Positions 2,608 to 62,353 of a DNA stretch of 64,000 nucleotides are shown one piece after another. The stretch is from Clostridia bacterium. Its GTDB lineage: Bacteria > Bacillota > Clostridia > Christensenellales > CAG-138. Under the pieces are notes generated by a model. It saw nothing but the letters and a program-made list of their open reading frames with translations. It did not search any database and was not told where the DNA came from. A program made the translations under genes and the position numbers. Location of the stretch: the NCBI GenBank assembly GCA_036677445.1, contig JAVBWI010000004.1:342786-406785 (forward strand). Direction: 5' to 3'. Every line of letters starts with the position of its first letter. The first letter of the stretch is position 1.

Positions 2608-2619
2608 ACGGGGCACGAC

Positions 2620-3145: not shown

Positions 3146-3160
3146 GGAATTATTTCTTCG

Positions 3161-23989: not shown

Positions 23990-24160
23990 GGACTGTTGCG
24001 CTAAGTGCATACGCCGAATAATTATTCAGGCACTTAGCGCGACAGCCCGGGTTCCTACTCCAAGCGGGGCACAATCGAGCCGGCGAATCGTTTTAGAACT
24101 TTGTTTCCTCTCGCATTATGCATTGAAAATGCTTAATGCGACACCCTATTTTTTGTTTTG
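23990..24160. repeat. Multi-hairpin intergenic repeat array 2 (ends in a terminator hairpin)
   Basis: The long stem CTGTTGCGCTAAGTGC...GCACTTAGCGCGACAG, and a terminal hairpin TCGCATTATGCA-ttgaaaa-TGCTTAATGCGA (24111-24141) followed by a T-rich run. Both are shared with 62050-62270. Confidence 0.8.
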
Positions 24161-28910: not shown

Positions 28911-30191
28911 CTACCTCCGCCTGTCGCGCGATGCGGGGATACCCAGCGCATTTCGGCAGTTCGTGACAGTCCGCTTTGTAACTCGCACGCCTTCCAAGGC
29001 AAGCAGACGGGCAAGCTCTCCGTCGCTGTAAGGCGCCAGCTTGTTTTCCGCAGCAACGATCTGGCCAATCCGCCGGCGAAGCTGGTGGGAGGACAAATGG
29101 GCATCCCCGGAAACGACGGAGGAAAACAGGCTCTTTAAGGCCAGCGTTCCCCGGGGCGTTTCCATATATTTGCCGTTTACGGCCCTGCTTACGGTGGATA
29201 CATGTATGGAAAGCGCGGCCGCCGCATCCGCCATTCTGACGGGCGAAAGGGCATCGCTGCGTTTGAGCAGGTAGTCGCGCTGGGCCGTGCAGAGATACTG
29301 CGCCACGCGCTGCACGGTTTCATGGCGCTTGCGCATGTTGCTGATAAGCTGCTTCGCCCGCAAAAGGCTCCTCCTTAAAAAAGCACATGCTTCCTCGTCC
29401 TGAGGGGAAACGGTCTTTAGATAGGCATAGGATATCTGCGGTTCCCGGTAAATGGCGTTTTGCATGGCGGCAACAGCGTTTCCGTCCTCTTCCACGCACA
29501 GCTTGAGCTCAGGTATAATATACGCGCTCTGCTTGGGCACGTAAAATTCGCTGCCGGGTTTCGGATTCATGGATTTGATGCATGCAATCAGCCCGGTTAC
29601 TTCCGCGCTGTCAATATGAAGCGCCGCCGCAATGAGGCCGATGCGGTTGAACGCCAGATCCACCAGATGATATTTTATCAGCCGATATAAACACATACGC
29701 CGTTCCTCCTGCCGCAGGGCCTGCAGCAGGAGGCACTGCGCAAGATCGCAGGCGCCTATGCCCGGCGGATCCATCCCGCGAAGCACCCGGCGCATAGCCG
29801 CCAATTCGCTTGCCGACGCGCCGGTTTCGGCCGCCGCCGACACAAAGTCGAGCTTTAAATATCCGTTATCGTCCACGCAGGAGATGAGAAATTTCAGTAT
29901 GCCGCGCTGCCGGGGTGAAAGCGCCAGCGCGCCGAGCTGATAGCGCAAATAGTCCTGCAAACCCATTTCGTCGGCCGCGGGACTGTCCGCATATGATAGC
30001 GCGTCGCCGTCGGATAAAAAAGCGGCGCCGTCATTGGGAAACTCCAGCAGGGGATTGGAATAGCACTCGTTTTTTATTGCCTCCAGAAATGCTTCCGTCG
30101 ACAGCTGCAAAACCGCAGCCGACTGTTGCTGCGCGAAACAAAACCGGGATTTCGGTACAGGCTGCTGGGTATTGGAGAGCGTTGGATTCAT
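28911..30191 (-). CDS. rpoN: RNA polymerase sigma-54 factor
   Basis: Gln-rich region I (AQQQSAAVLQLSTEAFLEAI...NPLLE), a PPGIGACDLAQCLLLQ core-binding motif, NPKPG, the HTH IHVSTVSRAVNGKYMETPRGTLALKSLF, and a divergent RpoN box VTKRTVTNCRNALGI. The start is taken at MNPTLS (30191). Confidence 0.85.
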   Translation of the reverse strand: MNPTLSNTQQPVPKSRFCFAQQQSAAVLQLSTEAFLEAIKNECYSNPLLEFPNDGAAFLSDGDALSYADSPAADEMGLQDYLRYQLGALALSPRQRGILKFLISCVDDNGYLKLDFVSAAAETGASASELAAMRRVLRGMDPPGIGACDLAQCLLLQALRQEERRMCLYRLIKYHLVDLAFNRIGLIAAALHIDSAEVTGLIACIKSMNPKPGSEFYVPKQSAYIIPELKLCVEEDGNAVAAMQNAIYREPQISYAYLKTVSPQDEEACAFLRRSLLRAKQLISNMRKRHETVQRVAQYLCTAQRDYLLKRSDALSPVRMADAAAALSIHVSTVSRAVNGKYMETPRGTLALKSLFSSVVSGDAHLSSHQLRRRIGQIVAAENKLAPYSDGELARLLALEGVRVTKRTVTNCRNALGIPASRDRRR

Positions 30192-30383
30192 AGCGATTCC
30201 CCCGCAATGTGTTTTATCACAGCATACCACACTAATTGCATTTACGATATCCAGCAGCGGAAATACCTCATTTCCACACAATCGCTTCTCTTTGTGTGGT
30301 GTTTACGCCCCATTTGTGCCCTTCACAGAAGTGGGAAATATATTTGCTGTATATGAAAATAGATAGGAATTGGAGGTCAACCC

Positions 30384-31037
30384 ATGGAAAACAACGACCG
30401 TACCCAAACCACACAGGCGCAGGCTTTGGTGTTTGATGTGGCAAATGCGGGCAGCACAGCCTGGTACGCCGCATTAGCGCCCCTGGGCGTGCTGCTATGC
30501 AGCGCCGTGGTAGCGTACCTTTGCTGGTATATGATATCCGACCTGAGCATCGTTTCCAAAATCATCGGCGGCCTGCTCGGACTTTTCTTCGTTGGCTACG
30601 TGACCTACTATTACCTTATGTTTTTTCAGAGCAGAAAACACAGCACCGGCCGCGTCGTGATGACAGATACGTACATAGAGTCCGTTACGCAGGAAGGTAC
30701 CAGGCGCTTCATGCTGTCCGACATCGTGTTCAGCATGAGCTACTCCAGTTCCACCAACCTTTGTATGATTGTGGCTACCGATACCGAATACATGACCATG
30801 GATTGCTCCTGCTGCTACCTGTTCACAAAAAAGGGCGTCCTGGCGCTTAAGCCCTTCTATGCCATCAATAAAAGGCTGATGGCATTCAATGAGAAACACA
30901 TCAACTACGTAAAGAGCAAAAAGTACCGCAAGAAGAATCCGTTCGAGATTGCACATTTCATTTTCGAGATCGAGTATTATACGCCCCGCGTGCAGGCACT
31001 GGTGGACCGGCTGCGCAGGGAATACCGGTTTCGATGA
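30384..31037 (+). CDS. Hypothetical membrane protein (two TM segments plus a cytoplasmic domain)
   Basis: 217-aa ORF with a GGAGG RBS and two hydrophobic segments (WYAALAPLGVLLCSAVVAYLCWY; IIGGLLGLFFVGYVTYYYLMFF). I recognised no family. Confidence 0.55.
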   Translation: MENNDRTQTTQAQALVFDVANAGSTAWYAALAPLGVLLCSAVVAYLCWYMISDLSIVSKIIGGLLGLFFVGYVTYYYLMFFQSRKHSTGRVVMTDTYIESVTQEGTRRFMLSDIVFSMSYSSSTNLCMIVATDTEYMTMDCSCCYLFTKKGVLALKPFYAINKRLMAFNEKHINYVKSKKYRKKNPFEIAHFIFEIEYYTPRVQALVDRLRREYRFR

Positions 31038-31139
31038 GGATAAAAATGGAATGTGATTGACATAAAAGGCAGAAGGGGGAATGTGGGGACATATCAGCGT
31101 TGCAATGCCATGATGATTTGACGGAGAAAGGAGGAGGTT

Positions 31140-31508
31140 ATGAAAGATCTGATTTATTCAACAACGGTTGTTAAAATCGGAGCCAGCGCACTGATGTTCC
31201 TCAGTGAGAAAATGCTGATTTTCTTTAATAAAAGAGCGCATTCCGACCTTGCGGAATATTCGGTGCTCATCGACGATGGCGAGGGCGGTTTTAACATTGA
31301 AACAGGGGATTATCTGGTTTTAGGAAACGCGCAATACCGCATCACGGCAATAGGTGATGTGGCTACCCGCAATTTCGAAATGCTCGGCCATGTCGTTGTA
31401 AGGTTCGACGGCAAGGATGTGGCCGCGCTGCCTGGCAATTTCCATGTGGAAAACAAAGAGATTGCCCCAATCACCGAAAACATGACCATATCGTTTGTAA
31501 AAAAATAG
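31140..31508 (+). CDS. srlB: PTS glucitol/sorbitol-family EIIA component
   Basis: 122 aa; the pattern VVKIG..A......MLIFF........L.E.S ... GDYLVLGNAQYRITAIGDVA...LGH is typical of SrlB/GutB. Strong RBS AGGAGGAGG. Confidence 0.8.
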   Translation: MKDLIYSTTVVKIGASALMFLSEKMLIFFNKRAHSDLAEYSVLIDDGEGGFNIETGDYLVLGNAQYRITAIGDVATRNFEMLGHVVVRFDGKDVAALPGNFHVENKEIAPITENMTISFVKK

Positions 31509-31535
31509 CGTACAAACATAAGGAGGTATTCATTC

Positions 31536-32060
31536 ATGGTAACTTTCGTTGAAAACTTTCAGGCAATATTTATCGCCTGCGGGGAAACCTTTTTAAGCCT
31601 GGTGGGCGGCATCGTTCCCATGGTGCTGGTGCTGCTCACTGTGTTCAACGCCATTTCCGCCTTGATCGGCGCCGAGCGCCTGGAGAAGTTCTCCAGGTTC
31701 CTCGCTAAAAACAGGGTCCTCTCTTACACCGTACTGCCCTTCGTCTCCTGGTTCTTCCTGTGCAACCCCATGGTATACAGTGCGGCGAAATTCCTGCCCC
31801 AAAGGCAGCGCGCCAGCTTTATCGACGTTGTTGCCACCACCAACGGCCCCATGCTTTCCATATTCCCGCACGTCAATCCCGCAGAGCTGTTCATTTGGCT
31901 GGGTATTGCGCAGGGTGTTGAAGCATTGGGGCTGCCCATCAGCGGCCTGGCGATCCGCTTCTTTATCGCAGGCTGGGTATTGGCGCTTCTGCGCGGCTTC
32001 ATCACCGAGTGGATTTGGGTATTCCTTGCAAAACGCGAGGGCGTTTCCATTGACGGTTAA
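31536..32060 (+). CDS. srlA: PTS glucitol/sorbitol-family EIIC component (SrlA type)
   Basis: 174 aa, hydrophobic; the N-terminus FVENFQAIFIACGETFLSLVGGIVP resembles the SrlA family. Confidence 0.8.
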   Translation: MVTFVENFQAIFIACGETFLSLVGGIVPMVLVLLTVFNAISALIGAERLEKFSRFLAKNRVLSYTVLPFVSWFFLCNPMVYSAAKFLPQRQRASFIDVVATTNGPMLSIFPHVNPAELFIWLGIAQGVEALGLPISGLAIRFFIAGWVLALLRGFITEWIWVFLAKREGVSIDG

Positions 32061-32075
32061 GGAGGTAAAGAAAAA

Positions 32076-33071
32076 ATGGCGAACTATAGAAGCGTTAAAA
32101 TAGGCAAAGGCGCCAACGGCTGGGGCAAGTACCTTATCGTCACCCCGACCGAGAAAAAGAATAAAGTCGTTTCCATCACGGGCGGCGGTATTCACCCCCT
32201 CGCCGAACGGATAGCAGAACTATCCGGCGGCGTCGCCGTAGATGGCTTTAAAAACCCCGTTTCCAACGACGAGGTATTCTGCGCGGTGGTGGACTGCGGG
32301 GGTACGCTCCGGACCGGCCTCTTCCCCAAGCAGGGCATCCCCACGGTAAATATTCTCGATGGCGGCCCTTCCGGCCCCATGGCGGATTACTGCACCGAGA
32401 ATAACTATGTTTCAGGCACAAAAATAAACAACATTGAGCCTACGGATGAGGCTGCATCCGTAGTGGCGGAGGCTGCAATGGAAAAGAAAGCGTACACCAC
32501 AAGCAAGGAAGAGGCAAAAGGCCAAAACAAATTCCTCAACGCCATCACAAAAGTCATGACCGTTGTTGGCCGGTTCATCGGCAAAATCGTCAACGTGTTC
32601 TTCGGCGGCGCAAGGCAGGCCGTAGACATGATGATCCGCAACGTGATTCCGTTCATGGTATTTATTTCCTTCCTCATCGGTCTTATGACCACCACCGGAT
32701 TTGGCAACTGGATTGCCGGCGGGCTTACCCCCTTTACCGGCACTGTGGGCGGGCTGATCATATTCGCATTGATTATCGGCATCCCCGTGCTCTCCCCCCT
32801 GCTGGCTCCCGGCGCCGTTGTGCAGTCCGTACTGGGCACCATGATCGGTACCCTGATCGCCACCGGCCAGGTATCCCCCTCCCTGGCGCTTCCGGCCCTG
32901 TTTGCCATCAGCGTGGTAGACGCCTGCGACTTCATTCCCGTTGCAGCCGCGCTGGGCGAAGCCGCGCCGGAGACTTCCAGAATAGCGGTTCCCGCTATGC
33001 TCTTCTCCCGGTTTATCACCGCCCCCATTGCAGTGCTGGTCGGCTTTGTGGCGGGCATCGGCTTATTCTAA
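32076..33071 (+). CDS. srlE: PTS glucitol/sorbitol-family EIIBC component (SrlE type)
   Basis: N-terminal soluble IIB part (KGANGWGKYLIVTPTEKKNKVVSITGGGIHPLA) followed by a membrane domain. Confidence 0.8.
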   Translation: MANYRSVKIGKGANGWGKYLIVTPTEKKNKVVSITGGGIHPLAERIAELSGGVAVDGFKNPVSNDEVFCAVVDCGGTLRTGLFPKQGIPTVNILDGGPSGPMADYCTENNYVSGTKINNIEPTDEAASVVAEAAMEKKAYTTSKEEAKGQNKFLNAITKVMTVVGRFIGKIVNVFFGGARQAVDMMIRNVIPFMVFISFLIGLMTTTGFGNWIAGGLTPFTGTVGGLIIFALIIGIPVLSPLLAPGAVVQSVLGTMIGTLIATGQVSPSLALPALFAISVVDACDFIPVAAALGEAAPETSRIAVPAMLFSRFITAPIAVLVGFVAGIGLF

Positions 33072-33179
33072 TACGTATTAACCCGTTTTTTTCAAAGAGA
33101 GAGTTTTTCGTCTGCCAACGTCTAACCAGCCGGTGCGGCGAAAAATTCTCTCCTGCGAAAAACAACGTGATTTATTTTG

Positions 33180-33208
33180 TTGAATAGCCGATCCATTGGC
33201 AATATACT
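33180..33208 (+). promoter_or_regulatory. Candidate internal promoter ahead of ptsH (sigma-A reading; overlaps a sigma-54-like TGGCA-N7-TTGT)
   Basis: TTGAAT (33180-33185), 17 nt spacer, TATACT (33203-33208). The same DNA also reads TGGCAATATACTTGT (33197-33211). Confidence 0.4.
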
Positions 33209-33247
33209 TGTAAATAAATGCTTTTTTGACACTATAACGGAGGATAT

Positions 33248-33505
33248 ATGACACAACGCTTTGAGGTCAAGGGTACCTGCGGGCTGCACGCACGCCCTGC
33301 GCTCCAATTTGTAGAGCTTGCGAAGCGCTTCGAAAGCAATATAACCATCGACAATTCCGGAAAACCCATCGATGCGAAAAGCCTGCTGGCGGTACTGTCC
33401 GCAGGCATCAGCGGCGGCACCGTCATTTCGATTACCGTAGAAGGCAGCGACGAAGCGGCCGCGATGAAAGCACTGGGGGAATATTTGAGTGTCCCTTTGC
33501 AGTGA
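33248..33505 (+). CDS. ptsH: Phosphocarrier protein HPr
   Basis: 85 aa with the His15 motif GLHARPA and the Ser46 context DAKSLLAVLSAG. Confidence 0.9.
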   Translation: MTQRFEVKGTCGLHARPALQFVELAKRFESNITIDNSGKPIDAKSLLAVLSAGISGGTVISITVEGSDEAAAMKALGEYLSVPLQ

Positions 33506-33548
33506 AACAACAGGCAATCCACATCACACACAAGGCAGGAGATCATAC

Positions 33549-35243
33549 ATGAAGGGTACTGCGGTCGTCCCCGGCTATGCCATTGGAAGGGCAGTGGTGC
33601 GTAAAAAATGCGAAAAAGAGATGCCCTTAGCGCTTGACGGCGATATGGCGGTATTGGCGGAGCTGGAACGCTTTGAAACGGCGCTCATAACGTCCATGCG
33701 CAAGCTGGACACATCCTACAAGACCGCCCGGGAGACGTTATCCGGCGAGGAAGCGGAGATATTCGCCGTACACAGGGCGTTATTGGACGACCCGACCCTG
33801 ATTGACGCGATACGCGGACGCATACGTACAGACAAACTGCCCGCTTCGCGCGCAATCGCTTCCGTTATTGACGAATATACCGCTCTGTTTGACAAAATGG
33901 ACGACGAGTATCTGAAGGCGCGCAAGTATGACTTGTTGGAGATCGGCTCCTACCTTACGCAGGCGCTGCATTTTGGCGACGCGGATTGCGCAGCCGGCGG
34001 CGAGGAGCCTTTTTTGTTGGTTACCGCCGAGCTTCTTGCGGGCGATCTTCTCGGCAAGGACGCCAAGCGGATTCTCGGCGTGATCGCCGAACGGGGCAAC
34101 CTTACCGCGCACGCGAGCATTGTCTGCAAAAGCCTGGGGATTCCCTTTGTGATCGGTATAGAGGGCATTACTGAGCTTGCCGCGCAAGGCGTCACGGCGG
34201 TGCTGGACGGCTTTACGGGGACTGTTTTCCTGGAGCCGGATGAAGAGACCTGCCGCAGTTACAGGCAGAAGATTGCGGAGCACAAAGCGCATACGGCGCA
34301 TTTGCAGCAGCTCGTTGGCATACAGGCAGCGACGGCGGACGGCGTGGAAATTCAGCTTTACGGCAATGCGGCTGGTGTTGTCGATGTAAAAGCCGCAGCG
34401 GAAAACGGGGCCGCGGGTATCGGGCTCTTTAGAACCGAGTTCTTATTTATGGACCGGCCGGATGTGCCGGACGAAGAGGAGCAGTTTTGCCTGTACCGGG
34501 ACGCCGCTGTCGCCATGAACGGGCGCTGCCTCACTATCCGCACGATGGATGTGGGCGGCGACAAGGAGATTGCCTCGCTGCAAATGCAAAAGGAGGAAAA
34601 TTCCTTCCTTGGCGTACGGGGGGTGCGTCTGAGCCTGATGCGGCCGGCGTTGTTCCGCACACAGCTTAGGGCGATTTTACGGGCCAGCGCTTACGGCTGC
34701 ATACGTTTGATGTTCCCCATGGTATGTTCAATAGATGAAATTCGGCAAATAAAGGGCATTGTCTTTGATGTGCAGCGGGAGCTGACGCAGCAAGGCATAT
34801 CCTTCGACAACGGCATGCATTTGGGCGTGATGGTGGAAATACCCTCCCTTGCCATAATGGCCGATCTGTTGTTCAACGAGGTGGATTTTGTAAGCATAGG
34901 CACCAACGATCTTACCCAGTACCTGCTTGCCGCCGACAGAACGAACTATGCGCTGCACGGTATCACGTCGGTGTGCCACCCAGCGCTGGTCCGCCTCCTG
35001 CAGAATGTGATCCGTTGCGGCGCCGCGGCGGGCAAGGAAGTTGGCGTATGCGGCGAAATGGCGGGCATGCCCCAATATGTGCCGTTGCTTTTAGGGATAG
35101 GCTTACGGGAATTCAGCGTAAGCCCTCCGCTTGTATCCACCGTAAAGAAAAGTATTCTGGATGCGGTCAGCACCGACTGCGCTGCGCTTGCGGCTTCCGT
35201 ACTAAAGTGTGCTACAGCCGAAGAGGCGGAGATTTTACTGTAA
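33549..35243 (+). CDS. ptsI: Phosphoenolpyruvate-protein phosphotransferase (PTS Enzyme I)
   Basis: Active-site His context GNLTAHASIVCKSLGIPFV, GLFRTEFLF, and the PEP-binding IGTNDLTQY. The start is taken at the ATG at 33549, after AGGAG. Confidence 0.9.
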   Translation: MKGTAVVPGYAIGRAVVRKKCEKEMPLALDGDMAVLAELERFETALITSMRKLDTSYKTARETLSGEEAEIFAVHRALLDDPTLIDAIRGRIRTDKLPASRAIASVIDEYTALFDKMDDEYLKARKYDLLEIGSYLTQALHFGDADCAAGGEEPFLLVTAELLAGDLLGKDAKRILGVIAERGNLTAHASIVCKSLGIPFVIGIEGITELAAQGVTAVLDGFTGTVFLEPDEETCRSYRQKIAEHKAHTAHLQQLVGIQAATADGVEIQLYGNAAGVVDVKAAAENGAAGIGLFRTEFLFMDRPDVPDEEEQFCLYRDAAVAMNGRCLTIRTMDVGGDKEIASLQMQKEENSFLGVRGVRLSLMRPALFRTQLRAILRASAYGCIRLMFPMVCSIDEIRQIKGIVFDVQRELTQQGISFDNGMHLGVMVEIPSLAIMADLLFNEVDFVSIGTNDLTQYLLAADRTNYALHGITSVCHPALVRLLQNVIRCGAAAGKEVGVCGEMAGMPQYVPLLLGIGLREFSVSPPLVSTVKKSILDAVSTDCAALAASVLKCATAEEAEILL

Positions 35244-35249
35244 AGTACC

Positions 35250-35705
35250 GACAAACCCTCCATGGGGGTGTGGGGGAGTAGAAGTGATGTACTCGGGGTT
35301 CTAAAATCGATTCACAGGATCGATTTTTGGCTCTCACGAGCCAACGAACCCGCTTCCCTACGGGAAGCCCCCCACTTAAATCCAATTTAACGACATGAGC
35401 GACATTTTCAGGCTGTCGATAAACCCCTTGGGGATTCGGGGACCGCTTTACAGTTCGCAATGGTCGCACCATTCTCATACGAGTGGTGCTCCCTTGCTCA
35501 CTGGCCTTCCGCCTCGCTTCATCTGCCACCGGCAGCACTCGGCTCCGGCTCCCGGAGGCTTAAGAACCGCCGCCAGCGACATGCGCGGTGGCGGCGGAAA
35601 GCCTTGCGACGCAAGGCTTTCCTTGCAGGAACAACCGCCCGTGCTGTAGGCACAGGTTGTTCCTGTAATCCTCGAAAAAGTGCCGTAAGGTACTTTTTCG
35701 ACAAG
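35250..35705. repeat. Mosaic multi-hairpin intergenic repeat array 3
   Basis: Contains near-copies of array-1 modules: 35290-35376 matches 2913-2997, 35552-35700 matches 2688-2822, and 35413-35440 matches 2650-2677. The module order is permuted. Confidence 0.85.
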
Positions 35706-35707
35706 CC

Positions 35708-38443
35708 TTAAAGCATGTCGGTATTTCGTTCGAACACCATCTTGCCCAGCAGCATCCGTTCGGAAACGGGGATGGATATACGAAAAGCCTTCTCAATGGT
35801 ATAGCTGATGTTTTCAACCAGCTTTCGCGTGCGCTCGTCCAGATTGAATGCACTGGATACAGTAAAGCAGTGGCCGCTGATCACGCGTTCGAGCATGAAC
35901 GTCATGTATACGTAGAGCCGCGTGCGCTCAAATCCTGTGATTTTATAAGAGAGGCTGCGGTCCAGCCAGACCACGCAGCGGCTGAAGGCTTCCTGTACCC
36001 TGCCGATATCGATGAAGGATACGTAGCGGCGGATGCTTTGCGCAAGCTCCTCTTCCGACATGAAGGATATGTCCGAGGAGCGTTCCCGTCCGAAATCATG
36101 GGTAATGCCGCGTTTACCGAGGATGGAGGCAAAGTCGATCAGGTTGGTATGCTTCAGAAACACCTCAAAGGGTACTACGCCCATCGCGGAATGGCTGTAG
36201 GAGAAGTTCACCATATCCACCACATAGCCGACGTTATCGGTTTCCATCATTTCCGACAGCCTGCGGTCGATCTCGCCATAGCTCCCGCACTGGTTAAAGC
36301 TTATGGTACGGATGCTGCTGCGGCGGTTACCCGAAAGATTAAGAAGGTTGCCGAGCATTTCCTTGATCTTTGTGCAGCAGGGCTCGTTCTCGCTGCATAC
36401 CACCAGCGCCACCGAGACCGCGCGCAAATCGATTGCGGCTTGGTTGCTCACCGGAATCAGGCTCTCCATAACGCGGGCATGGTCCCATTCGTTCTGTATG
36501 ATCTTGCTGGTCAGCACCACGATATTGGTCGTGGAAATATCATGAAACAGTACGCGGACCGGCATGTTCATGCGCTCGGAGAGGGTATGCGAAAGTATCA
36601 GCGCAGCGGTATCCTGTTCCATCACCACAAAGTTGGTTCCGCCCTGCGCGGCGCCGCCATCCTGCTCGCTCCCGCTGCCTGCCATCGGAGCCGCATCCAA
36701 CGGTTCAATATTGGTAATATCCAGCAATTTGTTCACGGTATGCGCAATTACGCGGTTGCTGTTGCCGTCGGAGGAAAGCAGATAGATTTTGTTTTCCGCC
36801 AGCTCTTTGTTGCGCACCACCAGGCGCATCCAGCAAAGCAGCGTGGCGGCATGGGAAGGCGATATGGAATAACGCCGAAGCAGCGGCTCTATAGGGTGCA
36901 GCGCCGCCGCGGTAGGCTCCAGTAACTCACTGGCCGCTGCCATCTTATGCATTGCGGCAAATATGCGCGAAGGCATCTGCTCGCCGTCCACGGCAGCTTT
37001 TATGGCATAATAGATGCCATACTGCAATTCACCAAGACTGTTCTTATCCTCCTGCAGGCTGTGCAGCGCCCTGCCAAGCTGCGCAAATATCTCCGCATCC
37101 GGACAAGCTTCGTCCGGAGGCATATAGCAGAACTGCTTTAAATAGATTTCGGTGGCACGGGTCATCGCCTGCGCCGAAGGCTCGGCGTTATCCTTGAGCT
37201 CAAACTTAAAAATACGGGACAGACAAAGGGGTGCGTTGGTATCGTCACTGTCGCCCGCGGGATATATGCAAAGCTCGGTTTCATAGGCTGTTTCGGCCGC
37301 GCGGTTGCTGATCGAATACATGGCCTGCAAAATAATATCATCGGAGAGCTGGCCCACGCCCACCCGAAGCGGCGGCAATGTGCAATCCAGGTACGCCTGT
37401 GAGCAGATGCTTTTGATATCGGCCATCAACTGCCCGGTGTTGCCGGGGCATTCATAGCGCATGAGGATGCTTACCACCTCTTTGCTCACAATGATGCGCT
37501 TCTGAATGTTGGTGCTTTCCTGTGTAAACGCGCGTTTTATCAAGCTGAAGCGCTCAGCCTGGCTGCGCTTTGAAAGCGGCGGCAGCTCGATGGTAATGGG
37601 GATACGGCGAAGGAGCGTGGGAATGAGCGCCTCCCGTGGGTTATAATTGGTAGCAAGCAGCAGCAGCACGTTGGCCGAGCGCTCCCGGTTTGTTTCCCCC
37701 ATCCGGCGGTATGTGCCCTTATCGATGATGGAGAACAGCATTTCCTGCCCTTGCGGAGGCAGGGAATGCACCTCATCCAGGAAGAGTATGCCGCCCTCGG
37801 CAAGCTCCACCAGGCCGCGTTTTTCATTTTTCGCATCCGTGTATGCGCCGGCTTCATGGCCAAAGAGCTGGGAAAGCAAAAGCTGCGGGTTATTGGCATA
37901 ATCCGAGCAGTTGAAACGAATGAACGGGTTGGCCTTGGAATAACGGCCGGTTTCTATTCCATACTGATACATCACATCCACAAGGAACGTTTTCCCGCAG
38001 CCCGTAGGACCGACAATCAGCGCGGGGAGGCCTTTGGGCGGATAGCTTATGGATGCCTTGGCGCTGTTGATAATTTTTACCGGAAAATATTTGGGGTCAT
38101 AGTACTTGTCAAAAACGGAAGGCTTGTCCTCCGCTATCGTTTCGCCCCGGAGCGCTTGCATCAGTTCCTCTGGCGCATAGCTTTCTCTCGCGGGAATAGC
38201 CTTTAATATGTTTTGGCACACCCCCGCGTGAAGATACCGGACAGGCCTGCCGCTGAGCTTAACGGCTTGCGACTCCTCCGCGAGACGGTTGAGCAGCCGG
38301 CTGGCATCACTTCGATGAATGTCCAGAGAATCCGCAATGGAGGAAGCGTCAAGCCCCATTCTGAGGTTGGGTTGCTCCAGCGCCTGCTTCGTACATTGTT
38401 CCAGGAGCGCCAATATGTCGTCAAGCCTGCTGCTCATGGGCAT
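35708..38443 (-). CDS. Sigma-54-dependent transcriptional activator with PRD/PTS-regulation domains (LevR type)
   Basis: N-terminal HTH; an AAA+ sigma-54 interaction module (Walker A GPTGCGKT, GHEAGAYTDA loop, Walker B GGILFLDEVH); and a long C-terminal region of PRD/EII-like length, 911 aa in total. The start is ATG 38443 or ATG 38437; the latter has better RBS spacing. Confidence 0.8.
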   Translation of the reverse strand: MPMSSRLDDILALLEQCTKQALEQPNLRMGLDASSIADSLDIHRSDASRLLNRLAEESQAVKLSGRPVRYLHAGVCQNILKAIPARESYAPEELMQALRGETIAEDKPSVFDKYYDPKYFPVKIINSAKASISYPPKGLPALIVGPTGCGKTFLVDVMYQYGIETGRYSKANPFIRFNCSDYANNPQLLLSQLFGHEAGAYTDAKNEKRGLVELAEGGILFLDEVHSLPPQGQEMLFSIIDKGTYRRMGETNRERSANVLLLLATNYNPREALIPTLLRRIPITIELPPLSKRSQAERFSLIKRAFTQESTNIQKRIIVSKEVVSILMRYECPGNTGQLMADIKSICSQAYLDCTLPPLRVGVGQLSDDIILQAMYSISNRAAETAYETELCIYPAGDSDDTNAPLCLSRIFKFELKDNAEPSAQAMTRATEIYLKQFCYMPPDEACPDAEIFAQLGRALHSLQEDKNSLGELQYGIYYAIKAAVDGEQMPSRIFAAMHKMAAASELLEPTAAALHPIEPLLRRYSISPSHAATLLCWMRLVVRNKELAENKIYLLSSDGNSNRVIAHTVNKLLDITNIEPLDAAPMAGSGSEQDGGAAQGGTNFVVMEQDTAALILSHTLSERMNMPVRVLFHDISTTNIVVLTSKIIQNEWDHARVMESLIPVSNQAAIDLRAVSVALVVCSENEPCCTKIKEMLGNLLNLSGNRRSSIRTISFNQCGSYGEIDRRLSEMMETDNVGYVVDMVNFSYSHSAMGVVPFEVFLKHTNLIDFASILGKRGITHDFGRERSSDISFMSEEELAQSIRRYVSFIDIGRVQEAFSRCVVWLDRSLSYKITGFERTRLYVYMTFMLERVISGHCFTVSSAFNLDERTRKLVENISYTIEKAFRISIPVSERMLLGKMVFERNTDML

Positions 38444-39244: not shown

Positions 39245-39480
39245 ATGTCAAAAAAGTGACTGCGTCACTTTTTTGATCTTCACAGGAACCGCCTGCATCT
39301 TTGATGCGGTCGGCGGTTCCTGAAGGGAAAGCCTTGCGATGCAAGGCTTTTCCCTCGCGCCGCACATGTCGTCGCTCGCGAATAAAGCCTAATGTAGCAG
39401 TCATTTGCAGCCATCAAATACAAAGTCCGTAGGACTTTGTCGATGGACTGAACCCTCCATCCTTGTCGGGCTGGAGGGTT
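39245..39480. repeat. Multi-hairpin intergenic repeat array 4 (first hairpin is the SIS-gene terminator)
   Basis: AAAAAAGTGAC-tgc-GTCACTTTTTT (39250-39274); GGAACCGCC...GGCGGTTCC; GGGAAAGCCTTGC-gat-GCAAGGCTTTTCCC, which shares a core with arrays 1 and 3; CAAAGTCC-gta-GGACTTTG, related to 3075-3104; AACCCTCCA...TGGAGGGTT. Confidence 0.8.
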
Positions 39481-39842: not shown

Positions 39843-41384
39843 ATGAAAAAGAAGCCGGCCGCAGTTGTCGCGGGAGTTCTGGTATGGTGCATGCTGTCCA
39901 CTACGGCGCTCGCAGTGGTGGATATAGACGATGTGGAAAAGACCGTCTATGCCAACGGGCATGCAATCGTCATCAAGGAAGACAGTGAAGACGCTGAAAA
40001 AACCATTGTGACTTCAGAAGAAAAAGACGCCGTGCGGGAAAGTGACGCGGGCAAGAACATCAAAAACTATACCGTATATGGCGGAAGCAAGCAAAAAGAT
40101 ATTACCGGAGATACGTCCGTTACCGTGGAAAGCGGGACGGTGAAGGACGTGTATGGCGGCAGCGGCGCAGGTACGGTTAGAGATTCCGCCGACATTACAG
40201 GAAGCACATCCGTAACCATCACGGGCGGTACGGTGACCGGTTCCGTCTATGGCGGCAGCGAGGGCAGGCTGCTCAATGACGCGGATATTTCCGGCAGCAC
40301 CGAGGTCGTCATTTCCGGCGGCACGGTAAACGGTTCCGTTTACGGCGGCAGCAAGAACGGCGGCGTAGGCGGCGATTCTTCCGTTGCCATAGAGAATGCA
40401 ACGGTCGGCGGCACAGTATACGGCGGCAGCGAGAACGGCAATATCGAGGGCGACACTTCCGTTTCTCTTGCGGACAGCACCGCAAAGGAGGTCTACGGCG
40501 GCAGTGAAAAGGGTAATGTACAGAGCACAGATGTGACGGTGGACAACAGCGCAACCGGAAATGTGTACGGCGGCAGCAAGACCGGCAATGTCACCGGGGA
40601 TGCCGGCACATCCGTCTCCATCATAAACGGCGCAAAGACCGGCAAGGTATACGGCGGCGGCAAGACCGGCAGCGCGAAAAAGACGCAGATTACCGTGGGA
40701 GGGGAAGACACCTCTGTGAATACCGTGTTTGCGGGCAGCGAAAAGGCAGGCATTACCATGAGCGCCGAAATCACGCTCGAAGGCGGGAATGTGACCTCCA
40801 AAAAGGTGTTCGGTTGGGGCGGCAACGATCTTTTAGCACCCGTCGGCCCGGTCAATGTGAACATATTCACGGAAAATGGCGCCGAAAACACCTATTACCT
40901 CTCACGTTTGTCCACCATCACCGTTGGCGATGCAATGATGGCATATAAGCTGATCGGTGAGGATGGGTACTACATCTATGCGCCGTTCACGTTTGCCGCG
41001 CGCGCCACGCGCGCCATCCCTGTAAAAACAGTCTATCAGGATAAAGCGGGCAACGTGCTCTTTACGATGGAGGAAAGCGTTACGCTGATGGAAGGCTATA
41101 CCACATCCCTCTCTTATCAATCCTGGAATGGCGCGTACGCAAACGCAAATAAGTATAAGCTGACCGGTACGCCGGCGGACGTTGCAATTGCCTTTGAGGA
41201 TGAAACAGACGCCTATACGTTCACTGTTGTGGCGGAGGCAATTTCCTCTGACGAACCCGATCCGGATCTCCCGTTGGGCATACCCCAGACCGGTGACGGC
41301 CCGTTTGCAGGCTACGTGATAGCCGCGCTTGCGCTCATGTCCCTGGCGGCGGCGCCGACACTGAAAAAGCGCCTGGCAAAGTAA
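39843..41384 (+). CDS. Cell-wall-anchored surface protein with about 10 VYGGS-type repeats and a PQTG sortase signal
   Basis: Signal peptide MKKKPAAVVAGVLVWCMLSTTALA. Repeats of about 20-24 aa (G-x-V-YGGS...GDTSVxI.GGTV). C-terminal IPQTGD, then a hydrophobic segment and KKRLAK. Confidence 0.8.
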   Translation: MKKKPAAVVAGVLVWCMLSTTALAVVDIDDVEKTVYANGHAIVIKEDSEDAEKTIVTSEEKDAVRESDAGKNIKNYTVYGGSKQKDITGDTSVTVESGTVKDVYGGSGAGTVRDSADITGSTSVTITGGTVTGSVYGGSEGRLLNDADISGSTEVVISGGTVNGSVYGGSKNGGVGGDSSVAIENATVGGTVYGGSENGNIEGDTSVSLADSTAKEVYGGSEKGNVQSTDVTVDNSATGNVYGGSKTGNVTGDAGTSVSIINGAKTGKVYGGGKTGSAKKTQITVGGEDTSVNTVFAGSEKAGITMSAEITLEGGNVTSKKVFGWGGNDLLAPVGPVNVNIFTENGAENTYYLSRLSTITVGDAMMAYKLIGEDGYYIYAPFTFAARATRAIPVKTVYQDKAGNVLFTMEESVTLMEGYTTSLSYQSWNGAYANANKYKLTGTPADVAIAFEDETDAYTFTVVAEAISSDEPDPDLPLGIPQTGDGPFAGYVIAALALMSLAAAPTLKKRLAK

Positions 41385-49888: not shown

Positions 49889-50007
49889 TGGAAAACCGCA
49901 TGGGTACCACACTCTCTTATCTTATCTACGTATGCGATCAGGTCGCCTACGCCATAGCCGTTGGCGGCCACCTGCCGCATGTTGCCGCCAAAACGGCAGG
50001 CCTTCAA

Positions 50008-50031
50008 AGTCCGGAGTACCCGGACTTTTTC
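50008..50031 (+). terminator. Intrinsic terminator after cphA
   Basis: AGTCCGG-agtac-CCGGACT followed by TTTTTCTTT. Confidence 0.65.
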
Positions 50032-50085
50032 TTTGCGGCTCTGAATTAGGAAAAATCGTATCCGCATTAAAATGCGAAGTACGGT

Positions 50086-54240: not shown

Positions 54241-57200
54241 TTATTTCATCGCTTCAAATAAAATGGTAAATCGGGTTCCGTTGTTTCTATCGATATAAAT
54301 TTCACCCTTGAGCTGCCTTACCAATATATTGACTATTTTAAGCCCCAGCGAATTGCTGTTTTGTATGATAAAATCGTCCGGCAGACCTATGCCGTTGTCA
54401 CCCACAACCAGCTTATACCTGTTTCCCGCGCCATGACGCAGATCGATTTGTATTTCTTTCTTCCGGTCAGGGCATCCGCCGGAAGCGGAAAAAGCGTATT
54501 TTAAGGCATTTGAAACAAGCTCGTTCATAATCAGAGCGCAGGGGATTATCGTATCGATGTTTAGCGTAATATCGTCTACGTATATTTTAGGGCTTATACT
54601 CCTCTCGCTAATACCATAAGACAAAAACAGATTGGCGATTAGGTTTTGAATATATTCAGGCAGATTGATCCTCGCCAGCGATTCGGACTGATACAGTTTT
54701 TCATGAATAAGCGCCATCGTGAAAATCCGGTTCTTGCTCTCCTTTAGTAACCCGATAACCAGTTCATCCGTAGTATAAAGCGATTGAAGGTTCAGCATGC
54801 TGTGAATGATCTGGAGATTGTTTTTTACGCGGTGATGGATTTCCTTAAGAAGCACCTCTTTTTCATGCAGGGCTGAACGCAAATGCGCCTCGCTGTCGTA
54901 TAGCTCCTCATTGGCAGCCGCAAGCTCGGCCGTCCGTTTCATCACGCGCTGTTCGAGTTCCCGGTTGAGCTTTTGTATTTCCGCCTCGGCCTTGTTGCGG
55001 TCGGTAATATCGATGCCCATCTCCAGAATAAGATTGGAGCCATCCGCGTCTACAAACGGGAAATCAAAAACGTCATAATCGCGGCCGTCCGGCCCGGTCC
55101 ATTTCCAGCTGCAGGGGGATTTTGTTTCCAAAACGCCGTAGGTTTGGCAATTCTCACATGGCTTATCGTGACCAAACAGGAATTCGAAGCAGCGCTTCCC
55201 ATGCGCTTCGCCAAAGCGCTCCCGAAATACGCGGTTGGCAAAGGGCGCGTGATAATCCGGGGTTAAGAGAACCACATATACCGGGAGTATCTCTAAAATT
55301 TCATTGAACCGCCGCTGTTCGACTATTACCTGCTCCTCGGCCTGCTTGCGGCGGGTAATATCTTCCTCCAATAGCTGATTGGTTCTGGCCAGTTCCGCAG
55401 TTCTTTCCAGAACCCGCATCTCCAGCTCCGCCTTTGCGCCCCGCAGCGCCTCCTCCGCCCGTTTCATCTCGTCCACCAACCGGGAATTTTCAAGAGAAAT
55501 TGCCGCCTGTGATGTCAGCAATTCCGTTAATTGCGTCTTTTCCGATGTAAAAACGGCGTCCGACAGACGGTTTTCCAGGTATAACACGCCTATCTTCTTG
55601 GACTGTTTGATAACCGGCAGGCAAAGAACAGATTTTAGCCGCATATGCCGGACCTCCGGATTATCCTTAAATATTCCCTCCTGCGCGGCGTTATTCAGTA
55701 CCAGCCGCTCTCCCGTCCTGTAAACGTAACGGGCAATGGCTTTGCAGATATCCCGCGTATCTTCCAGTTTTCTGTTGACCGTCCGTATGATTTGCTTTTT
55801 TACGACATGGCTTTCCGCATAGACAAACAGGCCATCGTTTTCCTGTATCAACAAATATCCGTGCTGTGCGCCGGAACTCTCGATCACCACATTCATAATC
55901 TTTTTTAACAGAGTATCCTGCTCTATTTCGGCGGCAATCGCAATAGACGATTTCATCAGATAATCAATATCCAGCGGAGGAAGGATATTGGGTGCGGCCG
56001 TCTCCAATTCCAATTGCGGAACGACCGCTTTCTCTTCCTTGAAATATTCAGGATATTTATTGATAAGATTTGATTCCTTGCGTTCCGCCCCACACGCCCG
56101 GTATAACCTGGCTGCCTCGGCAAAGTAAACCCTCTGCGTGCATTGGCCGGACTTCAACAGCAGTTCTCCAAGGCACTCATTGAGATGCCCTTCCAGAAAC
56201 GTATATTTTTGTTCATGTGCGATATTGATCGCGTCAAGATATAAGCTTCTGGCCTCTTTGAAGCTGCCAGCCACCCTTTCCCGTTCTGCGTATAAAAAGG
56301 CAAGGTAAGGTTTCAATAAGGGGCCTAAAGCCGCCCAGGTTTCAATTTTTTCAACAACAGGCCGGATTTCTGCTATAAGCTCATCAAAAGCACCGCCGGA
56401 TTCCTGTTCGAACAATTTCAGCTTGTTTAAAACCAAAAAGACATGCCATTGCCTTTTTAGAACGTTATCGGTAAGGCCGGATAAATATCGCTTTACCTCC
56501 TCGAGATACCGCCCCGCTTCTTCATATTCTCCAAAATAGTAATGGGATATCGCCATATGGACGCAGTAGCTGCCGGCCGAAGCAATATGATTATCCTTTT
56601 CCCACAAACGAAGCTTTTCATCCATTGATACATGGACGCAGTTCTTTTTCATGTGCCCGACCCAGCCGGCTTGCATCGCCTCGGCAAGTCTGGCTGAAAA
56701 TGCTAAATTGAATCGGTTCGAAAATTGAAGGCACTCGTTTGCATAGTCTTCAATTGCGGACATATCGGCGCCCTGCACCTGGAGATTCCACATTAACGGT
56801 CCGTAAGAAAGCCCCGCATTATACAGGTCGCCGCAGTTTTTCCCGCATTGGATCGACTTTAAGCAATACTCCACAATCTGCTTCGGATGGCTTCTTGAGT
56901 GCATATTGCACCATACGATACCGTTCATGCCCCTGGTTGCGCCAAAAGTATTCGGATATTTTGCGGAGAGATCGCGCGCAAGGTCCTCAAACCTGAATGC
57001 CTGTTCAAAGTCCCCCTGCTCTCCCAATAGAAGCCCCATGATGCTGAAGGAATATATGACCGATTCATCCATACCACCCGAGAGGCAATGCTGGGTAGAC
57101 TGCGCAGCGGAAAGATAAAGCTGCGGTACAAGGCCGGACATATACAGGTCGGGTATCAGCTCACTGTAGAAGGCAAGCTCAATTTTGCTCTTCCGTTCAT

Positions 57201-59856
57201 TTGTAAAAGGCATATTCAGGATCGCCTCATAAATATCGAAATCCTTTGCGAATATGTCGGATATCAGTCTCTCCCTTTTTCTTTGCGCTTTAACTGGGTC
57301 TTCCGGGATAGTCTTTCCAAAAATGCTGAGTCCTTTGTTGGCAGTCTCGATTGCTTTTATAAAATTGCCGATGGAAGACAACGAGGTCGTTTGTTCCGCC
57401 AGGCATTCTCCCTTGTCCAGGTCGGTTATTGCTTGATCCAACAACAGATTGAGCAACCTTTCGGAATTTGTGTAGTTCCCGCACATGAGCTCGGTTTTTG
57501 CCGCTTTTTTCAATATACTGAAGGTGCGCTGATAATGGGTTCCATTCCAGCAATCGTCCGGCAACAGCGATCTGCTGATTTGGAAATACTCATTTGCCGC
57601 TTCTGTAGCAAGCGTGTCAAGCGCCTTGTTGCCGGCATAGTAGTTTAAGTCCGACAGAAAATAGGCTTGCTGCCCGATTACTTTTTCTTCTTTCCCCATA
57701 TTAAGGTGTGAAACGATCGCAAAGAGGTTTTCTGCTTTTTCCAGCTCCATATCCGCCGGAATCGTTGTGAGGAGATAGTTTCCTACTTTTCGGTGTATCT
57801 GCCGCCGGTCCTCTGCCGGAATTAAGGATAATACCGCTTCCTGCACTCGATCATGTATGAATTGCAGCTGGCCCTTGTTCTCTATCAGCAGTCCCTGGCT
57901 TAGAACTGGTTTTAGCAGCTCATACAGCTCAAATAGAGACATTCCATTGATAGCGGAAATATCATTGGGTGAAAACGAATTCCCCATACACGCGCAATAT
58001 TTGAGCAAACCTGTCAAGCCCGGTGCGAGCTTCTGAATTTTAGCGCTAAAAAGCGCAACTACCGTAGTCGGCATATGCGATTGATTAACTTTGCCAACGT
58101 CCCAGCACCATTGCCTTTTTTCATCGAAAAAAAGCAGGCCTTCGTTGTAGAGATACGAGAGGCTTTCACTGACAAAAAGCGGGTTGCCTTCGCTTAGGGT
58201 GCTGATAAAATCCGACAATGTTTTGGTTTTTGAGCGGGGTGAATCGAGGATATAGGAAACCATCTCATGACAATGATGCGGTTTCAAAGATTCTAACCTG
58301 ATTTCCGTTAAAGGCCAGCCGCTGATCTTTGCATTTGTGATAAGCTTTGAGAGTGGGTGACTTGAATCAACCTCGTTATGACGGTATGCTCCCAGCAGGA
58401 AAAAGTAGGGATGATCCCTGTAATTGGCCATTATATTTGATAAAAAGTCAAAGGAGGCCATGTCGCACCATTGAAGATCGTCTATAAACAACGTCAATGG
58501 GTTTTCTTCACTGGCCAGACAAGTCAGAAACCGGTCAAAAAGATCATGATACCGGTTCAATGCCTCGACCGGCGGAAGCGCTTTTACATCGGGCTGCGGG
58601 CCAATCAGTATTTCCAATTCCGGGATAGCGTCAGTCAATACCCTGGCATTATTTCCTACTGATTGTAAGATTCTTTTTTTCCAGTTTGCAGCCCGCTCAT
58701 TGCTTTCGGTCAGAAAAGTTCTGATCAAGTTTTTAAGAGCCTGTATCAAGGAGCTATAGGGAATATTTTTTTGATAGATATCGAACTTTCCAGATGTAAA
58801 ATAGCCCTTATGCTTGACAATAGGATTTTGCAACTCCTGTATCAGGCGGGTCTTTCCTATGCCGGACAACCCGGATATCAGCAGCGAACGGAATTCACCC
58901 TTGACCACCTGCTCGTATTCCTGAAGTATAGTCCCGGCCTCTTTATCCCGGCCTACCATTTTGGAAACAAAGGGTATTTTTTGAATGCTTACGCATTTTT
59001 CTAAAAGAAATTCGCGTATTGCCCCGGTTTTTGCGTACTCAGCCTGGCATCGCATTAGGTCGGTTAAGAGCCCGCCGGCGCTTTGATAGCGTTTTTCCGG
59101 CTGCTTTATGATTAGTTTCGCAATGATTTTGCTTAATGCAACGGGGATATCCGGGTTGTGTATATGAACCTGAGGGGCTTCTTTTGCAAGATGTGAATGA
59201 ATCAATTCCAGCGGATCATCCGAATAAAACGGCAATTCGCCTGTCAATATCTCATAAAACACAATGCCCAGTGAATATAGGTCGGAAGAGAAAACAACCC
59301 GATGATTGATGCGTCCCGTTTGCTCCGGGGATGTATATGATAACGTATTTCTGATAAAGGAACGATCATAGATAAAATGGCTGACATCCCTGACATCCAC
59401 GGTGCTGATAAAATCTATTAATCTGATATCCGATATATTTGAACCGACAAGGATATTGTGCGGTTTAATTCCGCCATGGATGATTCCGGCTTCATGAATT
59501 TTCTCTAAAGCCTGTGTGAGTCTGTAAGCTAAAATAAAAAAATCGCTTAACGGTAATTGAGGATGCTCCTTTATAAATACATCAAGCGAAATCCCATTAA
59601 AATACTCCTGCGTTATAAAGCACATGCCATCTTTTACTTCAAAGGAATCCGGTGTAATCAGCAGTGGGTTTTTTATAACCTTAAGGTGCTCAATCTTCTG
59701 ATCAAACTGGGCTTTTTTATATCCGGAAAAATTTATTGATTTTAATACTTTAAGAACAAGTGTCTGATTCGGATTTGCTTGATGATATACCTTGAAGACG
59801 GCAGTGTGTGGAACCTCGGCTACCTTTTCTACTATTTCATAATTTAATATTTTCAT
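54241..59856 (-). CDS. 1871-aa multidomain signalling protein: degenerate Ser/Thr-kinase-like domain, AAA (AAA_16/STAND-like) ATPase, TPR-like region, GAF, PAS, HisKA_2-type histidine kinase
   Basis: Kinase-like N-terminus ([30 protein letters not shown]); Walker A GLSGIGKT and Walker [11 protein letters not shown]; GAF ([20 protein letters not shown]); PAS with CENCQ; H-box [13 protein letters not shown]; ATPase [20 protein letters not shown]. Confidence 0.85.
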
Positions 59857-62049: not shown

Positions 62050-62270
62050 TGACAGGCCTCTTAGGGGGTGTGGGGGATCAAAATCCCCACACCTATTCAA
62101 AGTGGTTTTTCGAACAATAAAAAGGGGCTGTCGCGCTAAATGTTCAGGCACTTAGCACGACAGTCCGGGTTCGTGCCCAAACAGGGCAAAATCGGTCCGA
62201 CGGGCCGATTTTAGAACCCCTTTACCTTTCGCATTATGCACTGAAAATGCTTAATGCGGCAACCCCTTTT
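62050..62270. repeat. Multi-hairpin intergenic repeat array 5
   Basis: GGTGTGGGGA-tcaaaa-TCCCCACACC; CTGTCGCGCTAA...TTAGCACGACAG; AAAATCGG...CCGATTTT; and the terminal hairpin TCGCATTATGCA-ctgaaaa-TGCTTAATGCGG (62229-62258) followed by CCCCTTTTT. It shares modules with array 2, and GGGGGTGTGGGGGA with array 3. Confidence 0.8.
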
Positions 62271-62353
62271 TATCGATCTTACAGCATCTACCATACCTTC
62301 GCCGCTACGCTTTTGCAGCAATGCAGGGACAGCACCGGCACTCCTTAATCTGT

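Follow-up and report, generated by a model that had tools for sequence, protein, structure and literature searches.

We analyzed a 64-kb stretch of DNA from an uncultured bacterium of the class Clostridia (contig JAVBWI010000004.1, positions 342,786 to 406,785; G+C content 52%; hereinafter, the window), in which hairpin-rich arrays of small intergenic elements, denoted here module A and module B, occupy the tails of two pairs of convergent genes. Array 1 (2608-3160) separates the stop codon of a gene for a DinB-type polymerase (1402-2607, plus strand; Pfam IMS) from that of a gene for a DUF4489 protein (3161-3628, minus strand). Array 2 (35244-35707) lies between the stop codons of ptsI, which encodes enzyme I of the phosphotransferase system (PTS; 33549-35243, plus strand; Pfam PEP-utilizers), and of a sigma-54 activator gene (35708-38443, minus strand). 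A preliminary description of the window had reported three modules shared by the two arrays on one strand, in swapped order, and had suggested that these form a structured RNA element in the 3' untranslated regions (UTRs) of dinB and ptsI. When each intergenic array was compared with the window using blastn, all three matches were reproduced on the same strand, well above chance: 2684-2823 with 35548-35687 (92% identity, E = 1e-52), 2870-3019 with 35250-35397 (83% identity, E = 1e-38), and 2644-2682 with 35409-35446 (90% identity, E = 3e-8). The matches are real, although their true lengths exceed those originally given, and the reported differences within hairpins and loops are exact (GGCTC-ttat-GAGCC versus GGCTC-tcac-GAGCC, GCTTCCC-cac-GGGAAGC versus GCTTCCC-tac-GGGAAGC, GCCTTGC-ggc-GCAAGGC versus GCCTTGC-gac-GCAAGGC, and GTGCC..GGTAC versus GTGCT..GGCAC). 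The view that the modules are independent units rather than products of a segmental duplication is likewise supported, but the elements in swapped order are two, not three, because the 28-nt piece counted as the third belongs to module B as its 5' head, which in array 2 an insert of ~103 nt separates from the body.

Module B, a discrete non-coding unit with terminal inverted repeats

Module B is a discrete unit of ~193 bp that, in the 5' to 3' direction, consists of a head, cAGyCTGTC(G)AAAAAG-CCCCTTGGGGG..., five hairpins, namely H1, H2 (loop GCGACATGTGCGG), H3, H4 and H5, and a tail, ...CTTTTTCGACAAGC. The two ends form imperfect terminal inverted repeats (5' AGTCTGTCAAAAAAG versus the 3' complement AGCTTGTCGAAAAAG, 12 of 15 positions identical) that are seen at the ends of the copies at L003, L004, L007 and L014 (L numbers denote contigs and loci outside the window). 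The unit has no coding capacity and contains merely spurious, overlapping open reading frames (ORFs) with low G+C content in the third codon positions.

Three copies are present in the window. The copy in array 2 is a long form (35409-35706, plus strand; covariance model match of 171.8 bits) that reaches to within 2 nt of the sigma-54 activator stop codon and comprises the head with the 5' inverted repeat (35409-35446), the insert (35447-35549) and the body (35550-35706). The hairpins in the body of this copy are H2 (35567-35597), CCGCCGCCA [gcgacatgcgcgg] TGGCGGCGG, with a conserved loop; H3 (35596-35622), a perfect palindrome of 12 bp, GGAAAGCCTTGC-gac-GCAAGGCTTTCC; H4 (35626-35665), with the outer stem CAGGAACAACC/GGTTGTTCCTG, the inner stem GTGCT/GGCAC and 10 covarying pairs; and H5 (35672-35701), in which an A-run, GTGCC-gtaa-GGTAC and a T-run form the 3' inverted repeat. 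With its 5-bp GC core between the A- and T-runs, H5 resembles a bidirectional terminator in sequence; a simple terminator scan flags it solely in array 1, on the minus strand. The copy in array 1 is a short form (2645-2834, plus strand; 146.8 bits) in which the T-run of H5 is deleted. The third copy (39245-39390, minus strand; 133.6 bits) is diverged, lacks the 5' head and is antisense to the upstream gene, which encodes a SIS-domain protein; nevertheless, it shows compensatory changes in H2, H4 and H5. The long form recurs as a single unit elsewhere (35413-35696 matches L013 980-700 with 89% identity). The insert that replaces hairpin H1 in long forms is graded in length, with ~103 nt in the window and in L013 and ~45 nt in L021 (5660-5720).

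A scan of a genome collection with the H3 palindrome as bait yielded 24 loci. Fifteen of these are full copies of module B, with 78-95% identity, in five uncultured metagenome-assembled genomes (MAGs) of Bacillota or Eubacteriales, which together with the three window copies, one of them inverted, makes 18 copies in six genomes. On one strand, the copies score 118-183 bits with the covariance model built from them, compared with no more than 34 bits on the opposite strand; the model detected no further copies in 218 kb. Most of the copies differ from the consensus at 4-12% of the positions; the third window copy (W3, 31%) and L010 (22%) are the most divergent. The remaining nine loci belong to unrelated organisms and share merely the 27-nt hairpin. 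The exact palindrome GGAAAGCCTTGCnnnGCAAGGCTTTCC, without the rest of module B, is found in Burkholderia-type, cyanobacterial, Bacteroidetes and actinobacterial genomes (L002, L005, L006, L011, L016, L020 and L022); such palindromes in unrelated genomes are probably convergent terminator hairpins.

Direct repeats of local terminator-like hairpins flank most copies of module B

Among the 16 copies of module B with usable flanks, 10 have direct repeats of a GC-rich hairpin immediately adjoining their two ends (z scores of 4.7-23, compared with shuffle maxima of 8-11.5). The repeat differs at every locus, being in each case another local hairpin, from 13 to ~41 nt. It spans the entire stem-loop together with a few additional bases, so that its length follows that of the hairpin; for example, aatgcccgcggcgcagccgcgggcga is repeated exactly on both sides of the L003 copy, 29 nt are repeated exactly at L019, and 32 nt with two differences at L014. 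The spacing of the two repeat copies is nearly constant, 191-198 nt in seven of nine loci; at L001, where a further hairpin, D (see below), follows module B inside the repeats, these are 244 nt apart. The divergence of the direct repeats is not significantly correlated with that of the elements (rho = 0.35, p = 0.36, n = 9). When module B and one of the repeats are deleted in silico, an ordinary intrinsic terminator remains. Every copy that could be placed adjoins at least one gene 3' end, and at least five copies lie between convergent genes, compared with none between divergent genes.

In array 1, a repeat search of the window identified three copies of one hairpin, GGCGGCA..TGCCGCC (family D7), all on the plus strand: T1 (2620-2647), the left direct repeat of module B (z = 10.7 in the direct-repeat test); T2 (2837-2864), between module B and the A-type element; and T3 (3112-3139), to the right of the A-type element. 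The layout of the array is therefore T1-B-T2-A-T3, and two independent insertions into a single terminator would account for the permuted order without any recombining modules. If the elements of each array were inserted separately, their order within it is arbitrary.

Module A, a composite of a backbone and a nested three-way junction

The A-type element of array 2 (35248-35408, plus strand; head CCGACAAACCC..GGGGG) starts 5 nt past the ptsI stop codon, is 83% identical to 2870-3019, and is cut short in its 3' part at the start of module B. It contains a three-way-junction core (35295-35351), GGGGTTC [AAAATCGAT..ATCGATTTT] [GGCTC..GAGCC] GAACCC, followed by a third hairpin, GCTTCCC-tac-GGGAAGC (35352-35368). 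The complete element in array 1 (2866-3108, plus strand; ends GCTGACAAA ... TTTGTCAGC) consists of the junction core (2918-2973), the hairpin (2974-2990) and a terminal hairpin, D (3077-3106). The closed multibranch fold previously proposed for 2913-2997 held up, being both the minimum free energy structure and the centroid in both copies, with z scores of -5.3 and, for the array 2 core, -5.9, and with none of 200 shuffled sequences folding as well.

The same junction is mounted on another backbone in the A2-type elements, one at 62137-62271 (minus strand), which is bounded by the inverted repeats GGGGyTGyCGCryTAA, and a decaying copy at 24019-24153 (minus strand) that matches it at 79%. With other helix sequences, the junction recurs at 62166-62221 (minus strand), L028 and L025; its helices persist in four contexts despite their differing sequences, and they change in a compensatory manner (ATCGAT/ATCGAT, ATCGCG/CGCGAT, ATCGATCC/GGATCGAT). 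The core thus occurs in at least three contexts, namely the backbones of A and of A2 and a metagenome contig from the human gut; the latter, which shares the junction alone, was the one distinct match of the module A pattern to metagenome contigs. Conversely, L003 (200-430) harbors the A backbone, consisting of the head, GATCGCAA, CCCCCRCAYTT..AATCTGACGA..TCAGATT and the terminal hairpin D, without the junction core and with a different 65-nt insert in its place. The A-type unit is, accordingly, a composite of a backbone with its own inverted ends and a nested module of ~85 nt that includes the three-way junction and a hairpin. Given that hairpin D follows module B within the L001 direct repeats, these elements nest and recombine, as pneumococcal BOX, RUP and SPRITE repeats do.

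A short motif, CGACATG, or TGTCG/CGACA, occurs in the window at 2707-2713, 3008-3014, 35388-35394 and 35577-35583, that is, in the H2 loop of module B and the 3' part of module A, and also in the inverted ends of modules B and A2; it may be a shared recognition site.

Covariation, strand asymmetry and orientation

As claimed in the preliminary description, the stems are kept across copies: in the alignment of the 18 copies of module B, 97% of the cells are paired. Of the 51 base pairs, 16 show changes on both sides, compared with 3.9 +/- 1.5 in shuffled alignments (none of 500 as high) and with 2-4 pairs in slid-partner controls. H3 is invariant in all copies, yet it was the bait used to find them. 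The exchange of GTGCC/GGTAC for GTGCT/GGCAC in the inner stem of H4, originally taken to replace one G-U pair with another, has a different origin: the consensus is GTGCC/GGCAC, from which each of the two copies departs by a single, independent C>T change, on opposite arms, and neither change is compensatory. Nor do the wobbles on their own indicate pairing of plus-strand RNA, as G.T pairs are tolerated in single-stranded DNA hairpins as well; the asymmetry between the strands is weak. The raw count of G.U versus A.C cells is 40 to 10, with 12 at one doubtful pair and several contributed by two rows with a rearranged H4.

The orientation of module B relative to transcription is mixed. Based on flanking ORFs selected for their length and for G+C at third codon positions, the element is sense in three co-directional contexts (L001, L014a and L019) and antisense in six (the 39245-39390 copy of the window, L003, L007, L009, L012 and L021). 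Occurrence in both orientations is an outcome that the preliminary description had itself named as refuting its RNA interpretation, which is accordingly not supported. No sigma-70-like promoter was detected by a promoter scan in the arrays or just upstream of the units, and a scan for transfer RNA and transfer-messenger RNA genes found none. An Rfam search gave no matches in the window at the gathering score; at E <= 10, the arrays showed merely chance-level hits, and nothing meaningful was found in the three repeat regions.

Conservation across genera and polymorphism between strains

The cyanophycin synthetase encoded in the window has its nearest named relatives in Caproiciproducens and Caproicibacter, at ~60-63% identity. 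The genomes that harbor module B are distant from each other, with orthologous proteins 59-74% identical between the window and one of the MAGs and 52-78% identical between MAGs; nevertheless, the copies of module B are 85-95% identical across these genomes. Moreover, the copies do not cluster by genome, the mean identity being 84% within and 81% between genomes. Viral contigs, searched with two patterns, and plasmids yielded no matches.

Contigs assembled from short reads of the same species end within the repeats. A sister strain shares 95-97% nucleotide identity with the window (96.6% at the ptsI contig, L028). In this strain (L028 11696-11762), ptsI is followed by a small hairpin, GGTGCCtttGGCAC, and then by an A2-type element, whereas the corresponding site of the window (35244-35260) has no hairpin and an A-type element 5 nt past the stop codon; module A after ptsI could be a stem-loop-replacing insertion. 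Downstream of dinB, 91 unrelated bases in the sister strain (L033 4207-4297) replace 1.18 kb of the window (2608-3790) that hold array 1 together with the DUF4489 gene and the region upstream of it; on this comparison, the dinB tail is a variable hotspot. The third copy of module B is present in both strains, and the contig of the sister strain breaks inside it. The A2-type element at 24 kb is orthologous in the two strains (on L028 in the sister strain) and differs by ~10%, compared with 3.4% in its flanks. In the 55-nt junction of the window copy, seven changes break stems, and the sister copy is missing another hairpin; judged by these substitutions, the copies are undergoing neutral decay and are not under purifying selection individually.

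Proposed mosaic mobile elements that land on terminators

We consider it fairly likely that modules A and B are mosaic, non-coding mobile elements, similar to MITEs (miniature transposable elements with inverted repeats), which land on the terminators of genes and duplicate them. Under this scenario, module B would insert at a stem-loop resembling an intrinsic terminator and would usually duplicate the entire stem-loop as the target-site duplication, so that both neighboring genes would retain a terminator and the element itself would reside in a transcriptionally insulated, harmless niche. The direct repeats could stem from strand transfer that a DDE transposase, acting in trans, carried out in a staggered fashion at the base of an extruded hairpin or cruciform, the structure-dependent route proposed for IS1272 of the IS1182 family. 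Copies that lack direct repeats might have followed a stem-loop-replacing route or might be old and decayed. The hairpins would be kept by a need of the mobile lineage and not as an RNA function of each copy. The transposase, the cruciform step and horizontal spread are parts of this model that we infer. A more specific proposal, which we advance only tentatively, is that module B represents a natural, multi-genome case of structure-measured transposition at the feet of terminator cruciforms, whereby whole terminators (13-41 nt) would be duplicated and the element, self-insulating in this manner, would have spread horizontally between genera of uncultured Clostridia. As a separate possibility, the nested three-way junction (GGGGUUC..GAACCC) might function as a module that binds protein or RNA and travels from one backbone to another.

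Several observations weigh against the mobile-element interpretation. Six of the 16 copies with usable flanks lack direct repeats (array 2, 39245-39390, L010, L012, L013 and L021), and the 15 copies outside the window were all found with the H3 palindrome, so the sample is biased. A true empty site, that is, an orthologous locus with one hairpin and no element, was not recovered, so that the target-duplication reading rests on reconstruction: in searches via the flanking proteins, conspecific Logan contigs ended inside the repeats; the sister strain lacks the entire 1.18-kb segment after dinB and does not provide a clean empty site; the syntenic MAG loci (L014 versus the window, and L004 versus L023) diverge exactly at the relevant sites; and the DUF4489 relative turned out to be a paralogous locus. 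In the ~330 kb examined, no transposase or autonomous element with matching ends was detected, nor any pair of such ends spaced by 0.7-3 kb, a weak negative given this amount of sequence. A modest excess of G.U over A.C remains when distinct events are counted by hand, minus doubtful pairs and misaligned rows (~12 versus 6), and the plus strand is the more stable one in 12 of the 18 copies, by a mean of 1.7 of ~82 kcal/mol. Finally, loops and linkers, such as the H2 loop, are conserved as well, beyond the needs of a passive hitch-hiker, which could reflect protein binding or an RNA role.

An RNA role is central to two alternatives. A cis-acting, plus-strand structured RNA in the 3' UTRs of dinB and ptsI, for example, a stabilizer, a terminator or a protein-binding site, would be compatible with the strong folds, the covarying stems, the co-orientation of both arrays with their upstream genes, and the strand bias in raw G.U counts and in folding energy. 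We nevertheless consider it unlikely: antisense placements outnumber sense ones, the third window copy among them; the G.U excess falls to roughly 2:1 by events; the cited swap consists of two independent changes from a Watson-Crick consensus; scans yielded neither a sigma-70-like promoter nor an Rfam match; in the sister strain, ptsI is followed by other elements and dinB by none; and decay is evident in an orthologous A-like copy. Furthermore, an element located between duplicated terminators would be shielded from read-through, which is a further argument against a read-through RNA. If the units were instead independently transcribed multi-copy small RNA genes that end in the H5 terminator and spread by duplication, their discrete size, the terminal hairpin followed by a T-run, the conservation of loops along with stems and the high similarity among distant genomes would all be accommodated. 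This possibility appears slim because a sigma-70-like promoter is missing in and just upstream of the units, each locus has its own local hairpin in front of the 5' end, the inverted and flanking direct repeats are transposon features, and H5, which has A- and T-runs on either side, would terminate transcripts arriving from both directions.

Two other alternatives dispense with a transcript. The hairpin mosaics in gene tails resemble the bacterial interspersed mosaic elements (BIMEs) that are built of repetitive extragenic palindromes (REPs), and strand-biased conservation of hairpins would suit recognition of single-stranded DNA, so that the local hairpins could be REPs and the modules mosaic linkers, moved by a REP-associated tyrosine transposase (RAYT, an IS200-like HUH enzyme) via single-stranded DNA hairpins. 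However, the flanking hairpins are locus-specific and lack a conserved REP consensus, the conserved unit is 193 bp long with inverted repeats, unlike a palindrome of 20-40 nt whose 5' tetranucleotide is conserved, and HUH transposition is not known to make target duplications; no RAYT gene was seen in the ~330 kb examined. A REP/BIME origin is, in our estimation, no more probable than small RNA genes. Alternatively, the complementarity of the stems could have arisen without selection, by intrastrand template switching (quasi-palindrome correction), with the similarity of the copies reflecting a recent burst. All helices are indeed near-perfect inverted repeats that fold equally on both strands, and most copies are close to the consensus. 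We regard this explanation as quite unlikely given that W3 and L010 keep every helix via multiple double changes, which points to selection in the active lineage, and that in the decaying 24-kb copy the stems are not rescued in place. Integron attC sites, group II intron fragments, TnpB/IscB guide RNAs, retron non-coding RNA and CRISPR were rejected on account of the lack of a matching Rfam model, the locus-specific flanking repeats, or the inverted repeats.

Comparison with known elements

The pneumococcal BOX, RUP and SPRITE repeats are close analogs of the mobile elements proposed here. Croucher et al. 2011 (PMC3049150) describe them as small (<300 bp), non-coding, highly base-paired elements that cluster between convergent genes or near gene 3' ends and insert into one another; BOX is modular and mosaic (boxA, boxB and boxC), SPRITE is terminator-like with A/T-run ends, and target-site duplications are reported for BOX and RUP, with none definable for SPRITE. 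Modules A and B share with them the small size, pairing, mosaicism, placement in gene tails, nesting and terminator-like ends. Unlike these repeats, to which they show no sequence similarity, modules A and B are GC-rich rather than AT-rich, reside in uncultured Clostridia near Caproiciproducens, and have an entire terminator hairpin as the flanking duplication.

With respect to the target, module B most resembles an insertion sequence (IS). IS1272, of the IS1182 family, targets stem-loops of varied sequence and size, usually just downstream of genes; the model of Wan et al. 2017 (PMC5678879) includes a route in which the whole stem-loop becomes duplicated because the ends are joined to a cruciform at its 5' feet, and another route that replaces it. 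IS1272 is autonomous, with its own transposase (tnp), and the reported new insertions replaced the stem-loop without duplication (PMC5678879). The stem-loop targets of module B are similar, and its 10 copies with and six without direct repeats would fit the two routes. In contrast to IS1272, module B is 193 bp long and has no ORF, and no IS1182-type transposase or matching ends were found in the sequence examined, so any link to IS1272 or the IS1182 family would be one of behavior alone. For the IS1182 family, ISfinder reportedly lists direct repeats of 0-60 bp. The bcr1 repeats of the Bacillus cereus group and other Firmicute MITEs are dispersed intergenic repeats of ~150 bp with a conserved predicted fold, compensatory changes and, in some cases, transcription; bcr1 makes a short target duplication of fixed length and is not known to target terminators. 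Both bcr1 and module B are dispersed and conserved in fold, but module B targets terminators, and there is no sequence similarity between the two. REP/BIME arrays of Enterobacteria are also gene-tail mosaics of palindromic units and linkers and may influence termination and the stability of mRNA; however, REPs are short palindromes conserved genome-wide, whereas in the arrays described here each locus has its own short hairpin and it is the long linkers that are conserved and mobile. An analogy, without any implication of membership, can be drawn with spacer integration by CRISPR Cas1-Cas2, in which a whole palindromic repeat is duplicated through integration at its two borders, giving an arrangement similar to the hairpin-unit-hairpin-unit-hairpin order of array 1; here, cas genes are absent, ordinary terminators take the place of the repeats, and the inserted elements measure 190-250 bp and have inverted repeats.

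Other features of the window

The convergent tail of the cyanophycin synthetase and hybrid histidine kinase genes contains ~172 nt of hairpin-rich sequence (49905-50076), outside all of the repeat families studied, compared with ~12 nt in the sister strain (L031 10656-10667). Conversely, a divergent promoter region of the sister strain contains an AT-rich insertion of 107 nt (L031 5953-6059) that is absent from the window (45308/45309). The ptsI gene preceding array 2 is an operon-specific paralog, with the next relative just 50% identical, and belongs to a glucitol-type PTS operon (28911-38443; EIIA, EIIC, EIIBC, HPr and EI) that also includes rpoN (sigma-54) and the sigma-54 activator. Degenerate 78-93-nt periodic repeats at 40059-40671 (families D1 and D2) encode a V/I-YGGS-rich motif within a 533-aa secreted or anchored protein without a Pfam match, and a 1871-aa sensor protein with Ser/Thr kinase, AAA_16, GAF and HisKA_2-HATPase domains (Pfam) is encoded at 54241-59856 (minus strand).

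Implications

The repeats themselves are ordinary for bacterial genomes; unusual are the duplications of whole terminators and the conservation across genera. The repeats of these modules break short-read assemblies of this gut- or fermenter-type lineage of Clostridia, and in motif screens the covarying hairpins of these modules could readily be mistaken for new regulatory RNAs. If the flanking repeats are true target duplications, some ten independent loci would provide comparative evidence for a route that has been merely modeled for IS1272. In this whole-stem-loop route, the structure of the DNA, instead of a fixed stagger, would set the length of the duplication. Such a mechanism, if real, would also explain how small parasites accumulate in gene tails without disturbing termination.

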